The position numbers were made by a program, and so were the translations under genes. A stretch of DNA of 64,000 nucleotides from Octopus vulgaris (lineage: Eukaryota): positions 31,310,001 through 31,374,000 of the forward strand of contig OX597821.1 in the NCBI GenBank assembly GCA_951406725.2. The letters are read 5' to 3'. The notes under the pieces were generated by a model. That model was not told where the DNA came from. It saw only the letters and a program-made list of their open reading frames with translations, and ran no database searches. Numbering within the stretch: position 1 is the first letter of the stretch; each line of letters opens with the position of its first letter. Shown here piece by piece: positions 1,280-44,166 of this stretch.

Positions 1280-1892
1280 TCATTTAAAATATTTTAAAGT
1301 CTTCAATTTAGCGTGGACACAAACTTGACCTAGTTCTATATGGTTATTCAATAAGTTTCTATGTTTTCTATGCTTTAGAATTTCATACGTCTCCATGGAG
1401 CATAGTTGGCAACCAACCCTGCTATTTTTATACGGAATTGCTCTCCTAACTATTTCCCAATTAAGGTTATAATTATTGTTATTATTTTTGAGTTCCCAGA
1501 TTTTGTTTGAAAGTGTGGTGGTACCAGCTTTATGACGTAATTTAAAAGACGAGATGTGATTTCTAACTCTGGCTAGAAAATTAATTGTACATCCAATGTA
1601 AAAATATTTGTTATTCTCAGTGGATATGGTACATTTATAGATTACGTTATTTTCCCCGCATAGACCAGGTGCCGGGCATTTTGATTTTATTCTACACTTA
1701 CACACAGGAGGAACAACTACAGGTTTTGGATCATTCTTGGGTAGATGTCTTAGGTTCCTATTATTTTGATTATCATGAGTATAATTGTCCTTATTGTTAT
1801 TAATATTTTTATAGTTGGTGCTGATATCTAAAGTATTGCTATTATTTATTGATCCTTCTGTTTCATCTTTTAGGTCTAAAGTCCTACCATGA
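1280..1892 (-). CDS. GIY-YIG endonuclease with Cys-rich linker (C-terminal part of the same polyprotein, out of frame by one base)
   Basis: CKCRIKSKCPAPGLC, NVIYKC...YFYIGCT, F..R..NH..SF, WEI, CQLCSME, LLN...C.H. This frame is open from the T7 run at 1893-1899 down to the stop at 1280. Confidence 0.93.
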
Positions 1893-4154
1893 TTTTTTTA
1901 TATTATTGGTAATGTTACTATTATTGTTAGTCTTTTTATCCGACTGCATATTGTTGTTATAGATATCACTGATATTTTCATTCTCCGTATTTTCTCCATT
2001 AGCCTTATTTCTATTATTTCTATTATTAACATTATTACTTCTATTAATATCGGTATTGTTATTATTACTATTAATGTTAATGTTATTAGTCATTCTGTGG
2101 TTACTAATTTCACCCATGTTTTGATAGTTACTATTGCTGTTTTTATTGTTGGTAGTATTATTATAATTGCTATTGGTATTCATGCTGATATTATTATTTT
2201 TATTTCTATCTTTCCTGGCTAGTTTAATGTTGTTATTATTAATCTTAGCTATTAAAGTGGACATATTTGGGAGGGTTGAATAAGAAATCCTAACTGTTTT
2301 CCTAGAAATAATTCTATGATATCTATGAGAGATTGGGAAATTTTTTTCTAGAATTACTTTGAATTTGTTCTGTATATCCGATTGTATCGCACAGTTGAAA
2401 GGAATGTTCAGCCATATTATATCTTTTTTATTAAATTTAGGGTTCGTAGAATTATTACTATTCATCTCACCAGAGTTATTGTATTTATTACCATTATTTT
2501 TATTTTTATTTGTGTGCATCTTTGGTTTATCTACTTCGATATTATCCGAGTTACCTATGTTTTGGTCAATGCTTCTATTTGAATTGTTGGGCCTGTACGT
2601 TAGATTAGCGTTTACCGTTAATTTAATTCTACTTTTATTTCGGGCTTGGTCTGTATTGCTGCTTACGTGATTACTGATAACTTCTTTATTAGGAATACGT
2701 AAGTTCTCCTTATCAACGAATGTGATCTTTTGGTTGTATCCTGCCTTAGTTAACGCCGCATTATAATGTTCAGAATGGGAGTTAAATATATCCTTATTGG
2801 ATGATAATTTTGAAATTCTTAATGAAATATTTCTTACTAAAGATTCAATTATATTTGGGGGATGATTTGATAATTTATTTACGTAATTCGTGATTTCGCC
2901 TTCCTTTCTAAATGGGTAATGCAGCTTGGAGTTAAGGTCTAGCGTAATATCTAGGAAGTTAACTATTTTAGTGCCAGGTTCATACGTTATGCTGAGGTTG
3001 AAATCCTTAAAGAACTTATTAATTTTCTTTCTAATCCTTTCTATAATAGATTTATTATTACTAGGGATAACAAACAGAGCATCATCCCTATATAGACCCC
3101 CCTGTAGTTCCGGGATATCCTTGCTTATGCATTTTAATAGATATGCGCCTACTAGGTTGGTTACCTCAGCCGAATCACTGGAACCCATTGGTATATCAAA
3201 ATAATTAGGTGTATCTGCTCTAGTCCATAATTTATCTTCAAATTCTATAAATGTCTTCCTAGCTAGTAGCACAATATTGATTTCTTCTCTAGATATGAGG
3301 GAGCGATTCATGGCAAATATTAGTGATTTGTTGAGCAAGATAGGGGAAATACTGGAGTAATAACTATTAATATCGAACTGAATAAAGGACAGACTACTAG
3401 TATTAGTTAGAGAGTTAAACCATTTTAGAACTTCGTCTGTACTTAGCCATAGGTTTAAGGGGAGAAGAGGGGTTATTTGGGGTAGAACAGTATCCAGGAT
3501 AGATTTACTAAGTCGGCCAATGTCCGACTTAGTTGGACAGATCAGCCTTACCGAAGGGTTTTCCAAGAAATTCTTTTTGTGGTCTTTAAGGTTGATCCTG
3601 GGCTCACACGGTTTAAGCGGCTCTGTTCTATCCGTTAAATTTAGTTTCTCCATGATCTCTTTCATTTCCAGGTTTACTTTTTTCAAATTGTTCTTAGTCG
3701 TAATTTTATATTTGGAGTTTAGTTCCTTCCTAATTAATTTGCTATAAAGATCGTAATCAACTCTATACATATTACCAGTTTTATCTGCTGGTACTAAGAT
3801 TCCATGTTTGCACCGGGTTGACTGAATAAAGTTCCTAAGGTGTCTAAGGTGAGGGTTGTATCTCAACGGGTGTTCCTTGAAGCTAATATCATCTATAAGA
3901 CTCAGCAGGTTTTTCTCAAAGTTCTCCAGGAATGGGTTCTGAGGTGGACTTTTTCTACTTTTAAAAATTCTTCCAAAATTCTTTTCGGTATTCTTTTTCT
4001 GTGGTTTCTTCTTCTGTTTGATATCAAAATGGTACGTTTTCCACCTGATTCTTCTAATGAAGTCGTTAATCCTATGAATGAGAAGCCAATTATATTCATC
4101 TATACTATGTAAGGGGATGTCTTTAGGGGAGAACTCAATGTTTATTTTTTCCAT
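1884..4154 (-). CDS. PLE reverse transcriptase (N-terminal part of RT-EN polyprotein)
   Basis: Motifs ILVPADKTGNMY, PSVRLICP, FIQFDINSYYSSI, YFDIPMGSSDSAEVTNLVG, GGLYRDDAL, VNFLDITLDL, SNHPP. First ATG (MEKINIEF) at 4154. Asn-rich linkers follow the thumb. Confidence 0.95.
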   Translation of the reverse strand: MEKINIEFSPKDIPLHSIDEYNWLLIHRINDFIRRIRWKTYHFDIKQKKKPQKKNTEKNFGRIFKSRKSPPQNPFLENFEKNLLSLIDDISFKEHPLRYNPHLRHLRNFIQSTRCKHGILVPADKTGNMYRVDYDLYSKLIRKELNSKYKITTKNNLKKVNLEMKEIMEKLNLTDRTEPLKPCEPRINLKDHKKNFLENPSVRLICPTKSDIGRLSKSILDTVLPQITPLLPLNLWLSTDEVLKWFNSLTNTSSLSFIQFDINSYYSSISPILLNKSLIFAMNRSLISREEINIVLLARKTFIEFEDKLWTRADTPNYFDIPMGSSDSAEVTNLVGAYLLKCISKDIPELQGGLYRDDALFVIPSNNKSIIERIRKKINKFFKDFNLSITYEPGTKIVNFLDITLDLNSKLHYPFRKEGEITNYVNKLSNHPPNIIESLVRNISLRISKLSSNKDIFNSHSEHYNAALTKAGYNQKITFVDKENLRIPNKEVISNHVSSNTDQARNKSRIKLTVNANLTYRPNNSNRSIDQNIGNSDNIEVDKPKMHTNKNKNNGNKYNNSGEMNSNNSTNPKFNKKDIIWLNIPFNCAIQSDIQNKFKVILEKNFPISHRYHRIISRKTVRISYSTLPNMSTLIAKINNNNIKLARKDRNKNNNISMNTNSNYNNTTNNKNSNSNYQNMGEISNHRMTNNININSNNNNTDINRSNNVNNRNNRNKANGENTENENISDIYNNNMQSDKKTNNNSNITNNIKKSW

Positions 4155-4262
4155 TCTTGTTGAGAAATTAAGTACCAGAAAAACATACAGACTGTATGGG
4201 AATATATTCAAAAAGCAATAAAGATTCAAGTCAATTTTAATGAATTTACTTGAATATGGTAC

Positions 4263-4787
4263 CTAATAAGCAGGAATTGAGACCCACCTCGTTGTGATTA
4301 GCCATGGATAAATTTGTCGTCTGTGAGTATGTAATCCCTCCTCATATCTCTGGAAATTCATATGTACACTATGGATTAGGTCACCTTCTCTGTGATGCTA
4401 TTAAAACTTTTTTAAAAATCTGTGATAAGACTGTACATCATCTTTAAAGAACTTTAATGAACTTTGGAAATCTGTTTATGTTACTTAATTATCTACATTA
4501 CTTCATGAGTATAGCCTCAACCACTAAGATGTCTAGAGAACTCACATGTATTTTAGCTGATGAGTACGGGACACGTTTATATGCTGCAATTTTTGCAACC
4601 TTTTAATAAAGCCTGTCTTTGTATGAAACGATTGTACTAAAAACTTATCCATTCTTGTTGCTTCTTTCTCGCTTATAATCACCCCACATTACTGTATTGT
4701 TAAAACCGTATAGTTTTTTGGTGCATCTAAGTTAGGTACCATATTCAAGTAAATTCATTAAAATTGACTTGAATCTTTATTGCTTTT

Positions 4788-4789
<2 letters not shown>
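4263..4789 (+). repeat. Inverted pseudo-LTR (5'-truncated 3' end of the PLE plus ~57-bp tail copied from the element's 5' leader)
   Basis: Two reverse-complement matches (to 1-64 and to 4209-4266); CTAA microhomology at the inversion junction. Confidence 0.9.
4551..4642 (+). ncRNA. Type I hammerhead ribozyme in pLTR
   Basis: Stem I TTTTAG/CTAAAA; CTGATGA; stem II GTACGGGACA...TGTCTTTGTAT; GAAA; minimal stem III C-GATT-G; GUA cleavage triplet at 4634-4636. Confidence 0.88.
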
Positions 4790-4826
<37 letters not shown>

Positions 4827-41023: not shown

Positions 41024-41716
41024 TGTATATTATTTTAATAAGTGATTTAAAAATAAAGCTACAACGTTTCAATGAAGTGCATAAATAGTATAAAAAACGA
41101 GGCGGTAGCTGTACATAAGAGATGTAAATAGTAAGAGATAAGAAAGGACAATATTTACACTATTAGCCTAAGTGAAGTATTTTCATGTAACTAAATTGGA
41201 ACAGTGACAAATGTGTCCATGCTTATAGAACAATAACACTAATACACATTCATAAACGCATTCACATACACAAAGATATATTGAGGTTTAGACGATATAC
41301 AAATAGGTGATGTCCATGAACATACTGGTTATATATCTTAGCTGATTATTGTTTCAGTTATTCAAGTTAAATTAGCCATAAACATGCATTTCTCATACAA
41401 AATGCCTCATACAAAATGAGTCTATATCCTTAGTATTCAAATATCATCATCGGCACGACAAATGTGGTGTTGATTACGAAACAGTGACCATGAGTATGTA
41501 ATTACAAGTAGGACATAAGAAGATTATTTTAAGTACATGTACCTCACTTTCGAACAATTCTGGGTTCCTGTCATTATATTCCTCGTCCTATAGTACTAAT
41601 TCCAGTTGCCATTTCGTAATTGAAATGCATTGTCAAGGGAGGTTGTAAGGTATACCAGCTCTTCGTTTCTCTCTCCCCGTGATTTTCCATACATACATAC
41701 ATAAATATATATATAT

Positions 41717-41762
<46 letters not shown>

Positions 41763-41916
41763 AATAAATATAAGAGAGTGTTCACTATATTGATCACTCT
41801 AGCACCAGTTAATCCAAGAGGTTTCAACCACGAAAAATACATGTTTCCCATGAAAGCCGGTACGACTGTTAGCTCACACGGACAGGGCAAATAAAAAATA
41901 ACAAAATACAGATTAT

Positions 41917-41994
41917 CTTGGGACAATTGTTTCGCTATTAATGAATTAAATGTAATATTATTTACAGTAATCCATTTGTAGCTCTTCAGCCAAG
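41917..41994 (-). ncRNA. Type I hammerhead ribozyme, copy 1
   Basis: CTTGG CTGAAGA GCTA...TAGC GAAA C-AATT-G TC CCAAG. Confidence 0.93.
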
Positions 41995-42451
41995 GCTATC
42001 TTGATGAAATCCACTCAATCACACGCCAGATTTTACCATAACGATAATTACGCGTGCGGTTCAATTGATTACATCGGACGTTATAATTCAAATGCCCCAA
42101 CCAACAGCGCGCCAAACTCTCACGGAAAACAAAATACAGCATTTAGAAATAAATGCAGCATAATTATAATTAATTAATAAGGGTGAGAGAATTAGATACT
42201 AATTTAATAGTATATTTATTCCACACCAAGTGGCCTAGTGCTACGAGAAACCTGGATTATTATAATATTTTATAACATATTATAATATTTTCACAAAATA
42301 AATATAAGAGAGTGTTCACTATATTGATCACTCTAGCACCAGTTAATCCAAGAGGTTTCAACCACGAAAAATACATGTTTCCCATGAAAGCCGGTACGAC
42401 TGTTAGCTCACACGGACAGGGCAAATAAAAAATAACAAAAATACAGATTAT

Positions 42452-42529
42452 CTTGGGACAATTGTTTCGCTATTAATGAATTAAATGTAATATTACTTAC
42501 AGTAATCCATTTGTAGCTCTTCAGCCAAG
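42452..42529 (-). ncRNA. Type I hammerhead ribozyme, copy 2
   Basis: Same motif, 535 bp from copy 1. Confidence 0.93.
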
Positions 42530-42941
42530 GCTATCTTGATGAAATCCACTCAATCACACGCCAGATTTTACCATAACGATAATTACGCGTGCGGTTCAAT
42601 TGATTACATCGGACGTTATAATTCAAATGCCCCAACCAACAGCGCGCCAAACTCTCACGGAAAACAAAATACAGCATTTAGAAATAAATGCAGCATAATT
42701 ATAATTAATTAATAAGGGTGAGAGAATTAGATACTAATTTAATAGTATATTTATTCCACTAATTAATTATAATTATGCTGCATTTATTTCTAAATGCTGT
42801 ATTTTGTTTTCCGTGAGAGTTTGGCGCGCTGTTGGTTGGGGCATTTGAATTATAACGTCCGATGTAATCAATTGAACCGCACGCGTAATTATCGTTATGG
42901 TAAAATCTGGCGTGTGATTGAGTGGATTTCATCAAGATAGC

Positions 42942-43019
42942 CTTGGCTGAAGAGCTACAAATGGATTACTGTAAGTAATATTACATTTAATTCATTAATA
43001 GCGAAACAATTGTCCCAAG
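42942..43019 (+). ncRNA. Type I hammerhead ribozyme, copy 3 (inverted)
   Basis: CTTGG CTGAAGA GCTA...TAGC GAAA CAATTG TC CCAAG; GUC at 43012-43014. Confidence 0.93.
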
Positions 43020-43360
43020 ATAATCTGTATTTTTGTTATTTTTTATTTGCCCTGTCCGTGTGAGCTAACAGTCGTACCGGCTTTCATGGGAAACATGTAT
43101 TTTTCGTGGTTGAAACCTCTTGGATTAACTGGTGCTAGAGTGATCAATATAGTGAACACTCTCTTATATTTATTTTGTGAAAATATTATAATATGTTATA
43201 AAATATTATAATAATCCAGGTTTCTCGTAGCACTAGGCCACTTGGTGTGGAATAAATATACTATTAAATTAGTATCTAATTCTCTCACCCTTATTAATTA
43301 ATTATATATATATATGTATACGTATATATACACTATATGTATATTGTATATATATAAAGC

Positions 43361-43394
<34 letters not shown>

Positions 43395-43420
43395 TATATA
43401 TACACATACATGGACGTGCC

Positions 43421-43479
<59 letters not shown>

Positions 43480-43483
<4 letters not shown>

Positions 43484-43914
43484 ATATTAGGGAATAAATC
43501 CAAATTTACAGGGAAAAAATCAGATTTAGGATTAAATCCAATTTTATAGTAAAATATTATAAAATATTATTAGAGACAAAACCACTATTTTGCAAAACAA
43601 ACAAGGAAAGACTTAATCAATACATAAAATTTTAATAAATAGTCAATACACATTCATAAACGCATTCACATACACAAAGATATATTGAGGTTTAGACGAT
43701 ATACAAATAGGTGATGTCCATGAACATACTGGTTATATATCTTAGCTGATTATTGTTTCAGTTATTCAAGTTAAATTAGCCATAAACATGCATTTCTCAT
43801 ACAAAATGCCTCATACAAATGTGTATTGACTATTTATTAAAATTTTATGTATTGATTAAGTCTTTCCTTGTTTGTTTTGCAAAATAGTGGTTTTGTCTCT
43901 AATAATATTTTATA
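43480..43914. mobile_element. Inverted-repeat element in (TA)n enclosing a captured local segment
   Basis: 95-bp perfect IR 43558-43652 / 43820-43914; 43645-43819 identical to 41241-41415. Confidence 0.9.
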
Positions 43915-43932
43915 TATATATATATATATATA

Positions 43933-44163
43933 CTTTATTTAAAAGCAGCAGAAAATTCAACAAAACCTGTTAGTCTAGCACGTCGGACAGATTCTGTTAC
44001 GTCGGACAGATTCTAGTAAAAACTGTCCGACAAACAGGAACGTGAAACTCAGAGTAACAGGTTTTGTTGAATTTTCTGCTGCTTTTAAATAAAGCATATT
44101 ACTCTACCACTGGTATTTGAGTACTCTTTTTTCCACCTTGTTTCACATTTATGTGTTTACTCC

Positions 44164-44166
<3 letters not shown>
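43933..44166 (+). mobile_element. Short PLE-type terminal fragment with 40-bp IR and decayed HHR (44023-44060)
   Basis: IR 43933-43972 / 44055-44094; CTGT CCGACAA ACAGGAACGT GAAA CTCAGAG TA ACAG. Confidence 0.65.

Follow-up and report, generated by a model that had tools for sequence, protein, structure and literature searches.

The locus considered here raises the question of whether a tandem and inverted hammerhead repeat in an octopus genome is a non-LTR retrozyme and, if so, how it was copied into place. It is located in the window, the whole 64,000-nucleotide stretch of Octopus vulgaris DNA that was analysed, and is one insertion of a young, ORF-less, hammerhead-bearing family of 535-nt repeats. 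Unit positions are counted from the base after the predicted cleavage site (42456 = 1). The left arm (41763..42759, minus strand, 998 nt) contains unit positions 233-535, 1-535 and 1-160, the right arm (42760..43306, plus strand, 547 nt) positions 281-535 and 1-292. Both arms are 5′-truncated where they meet head to head at 42759/42760 (junction region 42750..42770), and their outer ends adjoin (TA)n target tracts at 41689..41762 and 43307..43480, respectively. The 3′ end of the left arm is termed site A (41763..41785, minus strand, unit positions ~150-160) and that of the right arm, which carries a 132-nt tail, site B (43286..43306, plus strand, ~272-292). They are regarded as putative reverse transcriptase (RT) start sites 1 and 2. 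One complete unit, bounded by two predicted hammerhead cuts, lies at 41922..42456 on the minus strand.

An earlier note on this DNA had described two head-to-tail minus-strand monomers followed by an inverted one. The tandem arrangement was confirmed, but the minus part comprises 1.87 units instead of two whole monomers; the inverted copy is present as the plus arm. The near-identity of the copies between (TA)n tracts was also borne out: a single substitution and a single 1-nt indel separate the tandem copies over 463 nt, and the inverted arms are reported as 100% identical over 552 nt, a rounded value that is not letter-perfect. As had been stated, no recognisable ORF was found; in a natural six-unit array, the longest ATG ORF encodes 48 aa in sense and 57 aa in antisense orientation. 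The repeat thus combines features by which retrozymes are defined, namely two or more successive tandem units, each with a complete hammerhead, and the lack of protein-coding capacity at a G + C content below 45% (here 33%).

All three type I hammerheads that had been claimed (CUGAAGA...GAAA-CAAUUG-UC) could be located in the window, and the conserved elements CUGANGA, GAAA and NUH follow each other in the order that defines this type. Two are encoded on the minus strand at 41917..41994 (core start 41989, predicted cut 41922/41921) and 42452..42529 (core start 42524, predicted cut 42457/42456), which reproduces the reported spacing of 535 nt, and the third on the plus strand at 42942..43019 (core start 42947, predicted cut 43014/43015). 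The second hammerhead has a 5-bp stem I, a 4-bp stem II with a 41-nt insert and a 2-bp stem III over a palindromic hexamer. The suggested scan with hammerhead models failed: no Rfam hammerhead family matched, either at the gathering threshold or at E ≤ 10, a miss likely due to the insert in stem II. The hammerhead assignment therefore rests on the core motif and on covariation.

For the latter, 16 related copies were aligned, comprising the window copy, one family copy and 14 relatives from the wider clade with the same long stem II. The relatives were collected with a looser core pattern (of the first 100 matches listed, 20 were retrieved and 14 of these aligned). The copies were chosen on the core only, so that stems I and II were absent from the search pattern, whereas stem III is invariant through the selection of rows. 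In stems I and II, 93.3% of the cells are paired and double-sided changes occur in all nine base pairs. The covariation score was 0.525 as compared to 0.284 for shuffled alignments, the rows being related so that the shuffle count is not a probability, and slid controls reached at most 0.133. The hammerhead structure is under selection across the clade. Folded as a circle, the 535-nt unit has a predicted energy of -150.5 kcal/mol (z = -5.9 against 40 shuffles). Relative to the minimum, the predicted catalytic fold is less stable by 5.7 kcal/mol in the isolated domain and by 3.3 kcal/mol in the circle, tertiary contacts being outside the model, and self-cleavage of the unit may therefore be slow or need assistance.

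The exact hammerhead motif occurs 1,123 times in the genome and its reversed control not once, which excludes chance as its origin. A DNA search revealed at least 305 matches, obtained from 40 of the 724 candidate regions, and the search for tandem copies advised in the earlier note found the structure at many loci with locus-private variants. Site B is joined to TA 796 times genome-wide; for site A, the forward-strand count is 410 (overlaps inflate that of the reverse strand), so that A and B ends are present at about 1:1. Insertions number about 800 or more, at TA-repeat sites on many contigs, and the copies are thus dispersed and mobile as is required of a non-LTR retrozyme. Older subfamilies with units of 480-532 nt are 65-80% identical and are terminated by the same two sites. 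Across 12 subfamily copies, a conserved hairpin is found directly 5′ of each end site, and a long-range 7-bp stem enclosing site A (43129..43236, plus strand; unit positions 115-121 with 216-222) shows double-sided changes in four of its seven pairs, in a structure that was partly derived from the same alignment.

Pure long arrays were observed at C120:211-6095 and C11:8901801-8906615 (11 and 9 units listed), C120 being a small contig that begins inside the array. A hammerhead-bearing relative at L224:7202 (minus strand) is 68% identical over 234 nt to the subfamily at L182, has a different stem III and ends in (TA)n ~166 nt past its own cut. Furthermore, 4 of 22 sequencing runs were compared, all as assembled contigs. 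For two of them, the RNA nature of which is a guess (X1 and X2), 30 of 30 and 29 of 30 bins were covered and contigs crossed the predicted cut, a pattern in which circle and tandem, or RNA and DNA, are indistinguishable. In a large run (X15), nearly all depth over 42006-42540 belongs to alleles of an older subfamily and the youngest alleles of the window are almost absent. Summed contig depth is a poor measure, and the pattern is a hint that subfamilies were amplified separately in different populations or close species.

The architecture of the insertions was examined at 40 loci, comprising the locus in the window, 19 loci from among the best hits, which are biased to the youngest copies, and 20 loci taken in position order along contig 1. 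Two arms were found at 27 of these and one arm at 13. In 26 of the 27 two-armed loci, the arms terminate at unit positions ~160 and ~292, one at each; the pairs A+A and B+B do not occur, and the remaining locus (L048) is unclassed. Over 0-186 Mb of contig 1, 52 B and 53 A ends were listed, and all 25 outward pairs are A+B (p = 3e-8). Seven of these pairs are also among the 26 loci, giving 44 distinct loci on many contigs with this structure and with different junctions. Each such insertion consists of two divergent, 5′-truncated arms with 3′ ends in (TA)n at two sites 132 nt apart. An inverted 5′-truncated arm, a one-ended tail and a microsatellite target together characterise an element mobilised by a Penelope-like element (PLE). 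The inverted copy, the meaning of which the earlier note had missed, corresponds to the second arm of such a stereotyped insertion, whose two fixed 3′ ends differ from each other.

The 5′ ends of the arms vary freely among loci. Some lie near the predicted cut, at position 1 in L169 and at position 14 in L151, L165 and inside L031; by a rough hand estimate these are too few to exceed chance. At several loci, the central junctions contain short overlaps or short repeated pieces, which resemble products of microhomology repair.

The preferred reading, to which a probability of roughly 0.65 is assigned, is that of a non-LTR retrozyme whose monomer, as a circle or a nicked circle, would serve a PLE RT as template, with priming at both DNA ends. 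The earlier note had likewise proposed copying through a monomer template by a PLE RT, and this is the best-supported reading. An array would be transcribed and its transcript cleaved by the hammerheads to the 535-nt monomer, which would then be closed, either ligated or nicked and held together by stem I, and bound by a dimer of the PLE protein. The protein would cut both strands within (TA)n, and on the same template synthesis would be primed at site A by one DNA end and at site B by the other. Each RT would continue by rolling synthesis for a variable distance, up to 12 units, and the two cDNA ends would finally be joined head to head by microhomology repair. The full version, in which one PLE dimer uses one 535-nt circle with two priming sites 132 nt apart and both polymerases roll, is put forward tentatively, at slightly less than even odds. 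If it is true, the tail and the inverted arm of PLEs are an obligate product of twin priming, and the family, still amplifying, would be the first in which rolling-circle reverse transcription of an animal retrozyme can be traced directly.

The main alternative dispenses with the circle: a PLE would insert short arms from an uncleaved, linear read-through transcript, and the arrays would grow later by unequal crossover or slippage. It accounts equally well for the PLE signature, and hammerhead cleavage was found to be dispensable for a PLE in vitro (PMC11167929, as far as accessible); moreover, the catalytic fold is not the one of lowest energy, a point against which the selection on the hammerhead stems has to be set. 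The composition of the arrays speaks against it. Arms contain up to 12 full units, and unit junctions are exact in 212 of 214 cases. Counted on substitutions, with indels left out, 148 full units differ on average by 1.0 within an array, by 0.85 between the arms of a locus and by 10.1 between loci; assembly polishing could contribute to this homogeneity. Of the variants private to a locus, 14 are fixed throughout the units that cover them and 62 are single, whereas only four are at intermediate frequency. Arrays of six to ten units are free of substitutions (L039, L045 and L161, with ten full units in L161 and seven in L045), and divergence shows no significant trend with length over 29 arrays (rho = 0.23, p = 0.23). 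This pattern fits the repeated copying of one monomer at insertion, and the linear template is considered unlikely.

Mosaic arrays also occur (L031, L047, L048, L153, L157 and L164), as later growth of the arrays would allow; in some cases they represent template switching, conversion or assembly error. Four private variants are common to both arms of a locus and three multi-unit ones are restricted to one arm, and together with the mosaics the latter imply that one molecule per insertion is not universal. In L168, one private variant is fixed in the long arm and missing from the short arm. The 13 loci with a single arm likewise weigh against the preferred reading. Some variants recur in non-adjacent units, such as position 248 in L157 (4 of 13 units), position 363 in L153 (2 of 5) and position 489 in L031 (several); these could stem from a switch of template, from a miscoding base on a template that was read repeatedly, from conversion or from an error of assembly.

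Candidate helpers are encoded in the same genome, where intact PLE ORFs of 781-1090 aa belong to (TA)n insertions with inverted arms and paired short and long ends. A young Neptune-like family (L101-L113) has an ORF of 781 aa with RT and GIY-YIG domains, and in L106 and L108 one arm carries the long end and the other a short end with ~36 nt less. This family also has an open frame upstream, which reaches 479 aa, and a canonical hammerhead was not found in its pseudo-LTR (pLTR). Hydra-like families contain intact ORFs of 842, 981 and 1090 aa with a DKT motif and the RW[K/R/A] motif described in PMC8557442. Their hammerheads are of type I, stem II being long and the stem III hexamer palindromic or nearly so, and their paired ends lie 40/111, 43/114, 37/149 and 15/151 nt past the cut; two short ends are seen in L227 and L228.

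Local alignment of the unit to six PLE pLTRs, a sample of the PLE families of the genome, yielded no significant similarity (24 comparisons, best p = 0.06). With blastn against 51 GIY-YIG and PLE loci (50 of them PLE), AT-rich noise alone was obtained, and the comparison of seven young and old units to 100 PLE loci returned TA-rich matches and further retrozyme-like pieces among the matches listed. By eye, a hairpin followed by CUUAU before the ends was noticed as a lead, as was a GGUG/CACC stem before the long end in the 842-aa Hydra family. No sequence link having been found, the class of the helper is inferred from the PLE-type scar. The helper is probably a PLE of the Hydra clade, which is the weakest step of the mechanism.

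The hammerhead type and the end architecture, both the same as in PLE pLTRs of this genome, would also be expected if the units were pLTR pieces of an unfound autonomous PLE and the arrays its truncated partial tandems. The loci read for this purpose are 60 of about 800 or more. At none of them is the unit fused to an RT or endonuclease ORF, as an autonomous PLE would require, so that the RT linkage named in the earlier note as a reason to reject a retrozyme was not encountered; PLE pieces lie nearby at five loci, at a distance of 0.4-2.7 kb (the gap at L185 is unread). The arms run seamlessly through up to a dozen units, and the 5′ flanks of six one-armed loci show no common extension. On these grounds this origin is improbable.

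Further PLE-type insertions were observed in the window. At 43483-43919, a short two-armed insert with a tail of ~70 nt consists of the pLTR of a Hydra-like PLE; in L177 this pLTR is joined to an RT ORF. The long arm stops at one point, ~12 nt 3′ of its own hammerhead cut, in 18 of the 20 best-hit loci of this family and runs through in two; the fixed stop fits RT run-off on cut RNA, a stall at the folded ribozyme or a fixed transcription start. A 175-bp segment between the arms of this insert (43645-43819) is an exact copy of host DNA at 41241-41415, 2.4 kb away, captured as a templated insertion where the arms join. Another short insert with an inverted arm, the third, occupies 43928-44165 in (TA)n; it is extended on one side by ~65 nt and resembles a further PLE 3′ end. 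At 1280-4796 (minus strand) lies a Hydra-like PLE whose RT frame of 792 aa is asparagine-rich at its end, a frameshift placing GIY-YIG in a different frame; its inverted arm carries a hammerhead at 4557 (plus strand), and relatives of this PLE have open frames of 877-984 aa.

Copying by a PLE RT could also yield an inverted arm from a single primed cDNA that folds back and copies itself, a self-priming idea found in the accessible part of PMC3846280. One arm could lie within the other at 22 of 26 loci, a count that includes L031 and L165, the spans of which were mis-computed. At the other four loci (L033, L041, L046 and L162) each arm includes sequence that the other lacks, so that copying by fold-back is excluded at these loci, and the strict pairing of A with B would be left without a reason; this route is very improbable. 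Spread of the repeat as DNA, by extrachromosomal circles or rolling-circle DNA transposition with the ribozyme as a passenger, deserves still less credence. DNA circles also give rise to homogeneous tandem arrays, but the fixed 3′ and variable 5′ ends, the compensatory RNA stems beside both ends and the same pattern in the RT-coding PLEs of this genome largely refute it already. Assembly artefact, the other objection anticipated in the earlier note, is the least credible explanation: repeats embedded in (TA)n are hard to assemble and L047 and L048 contain many scattered differences, but the A+B structure recurs at 44 distinct loci, which are spread over many contigs and differ in their junctions and private variants.

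The element is real, young and mobile, and its value is mechanistic. It has the genomic features of a non-LTR retrozyme as set out in the accessible part of PMC7229834, cleavage and circle being predicted here. The inverted arm, the tail and the TA bias are already known as PLE features (PMC8557442, PMC3846280, both as far as accessible). In the open literature covered, no cephalopod retrozyme, no retrozyme with a PLE scar and no strict rule of one A and one B end were found; the family may already be catalogued in repeat databases or supplements. A PLE RT acting on a circle has been a hypothesis for the movement of animal retrozymes since 2020, and a preprint of 2026 discusses local expansion instead. 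The formation of PLE tails and inverted arms is still unsettled. With about 800 or more young insertions, two mapped putative RT start sites, intact candidate helper ORFs and a 535-nt substrate, both questions can be addressed experimentally in an in vitro system that already exists.

The comparison with known systems draws on the accessible parts of the sources cited. Metazoan non-LTR retrozymes (Cervera and de la Peña, 2020; PMC7229834) have units of ~170-400 nt, their circles have been demonstrated, and PLEs co-occur with them and were proposed as helpers. The octopus family resembles them in its tandem, low-GC, ORF-less units with type I hammerheads and in the strongly self-paired predicted circle; it differs in its unit of 535 nt and in that the circle is a prediction. 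The terms "inverted", "target site", "microsatellite" and "cephalopod" have no occurrence in the text of PMC7229834, which indicates that the two-armed, TA-targeted, two-ended form is not described there. Rolling reverse transcription of a retrozyme circle is a published model (PMC7761336), and 235 hammerhead hits are reported for a squid genome (PMC10886601, PMC6962438).

Vertebrate retrozymes, described as PLE derivatives of 51-972 bp (Li, Clavereau and Pollet, 2026; bioRxiv 10.64898/2026.07.22.740005; 35 genomes, no mollusc among them in the accessible part), share the link to PLEs. The earlier claim that the unit is longer than most animal retrozymes consequently holds against the metazoan range but not against this one, which covers 535 nt. 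In the preprint, the PLE link is drawn from co-occurrence and pLTR homology and local amplification by unequal crossover is discussed, whereas the octopus link is an insertion scar without pLTR homology; insertion ends are not analysed in the part accessible. MRC1-type Chlamys elements of Chlamydomonas (PMC8557442) are non-autonomous PLE dependants with multicopy head-to-tail insertions, but they have 3′ sequence in common with their helpers, and their clade is mostly devoid of canonical hammerheads.

The insertions themselves can be compared to those of EN+ PLEs of the Hydra and Neptune clades (Craig et al., 2021, PMC8557442; Arkhipova et al., 2013, PMC3846280), with which they share the inverted 5′-truncated arm, the one-ended tail, the targeting of (TA)n and the terminal-repeat hammerhead. 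In those elements, the tail measures 30-40 bp and is "often" or "optionally" one-ended, whereas the octopus units are ORF-less, the arms are pure multimers and the tail of 132 nt comes with strictly one end of each kind. With the purified protein of the PLE PAc Poseidon, both target strands were cut and extended in vitro (Frangieh et al., 2024, PMC11167929). Two internal RNA start sites bound the tail, the target is AT-rich and a dimer is predicted; uncleaved RNA was the main substrate, and the two strands showed no difference in start site. Two internal RT start sites bounding the tail, here putative, and an AT-rich target are common to both systems, but the octopus insertions use each site once and their arms cross many hammerhead sites.
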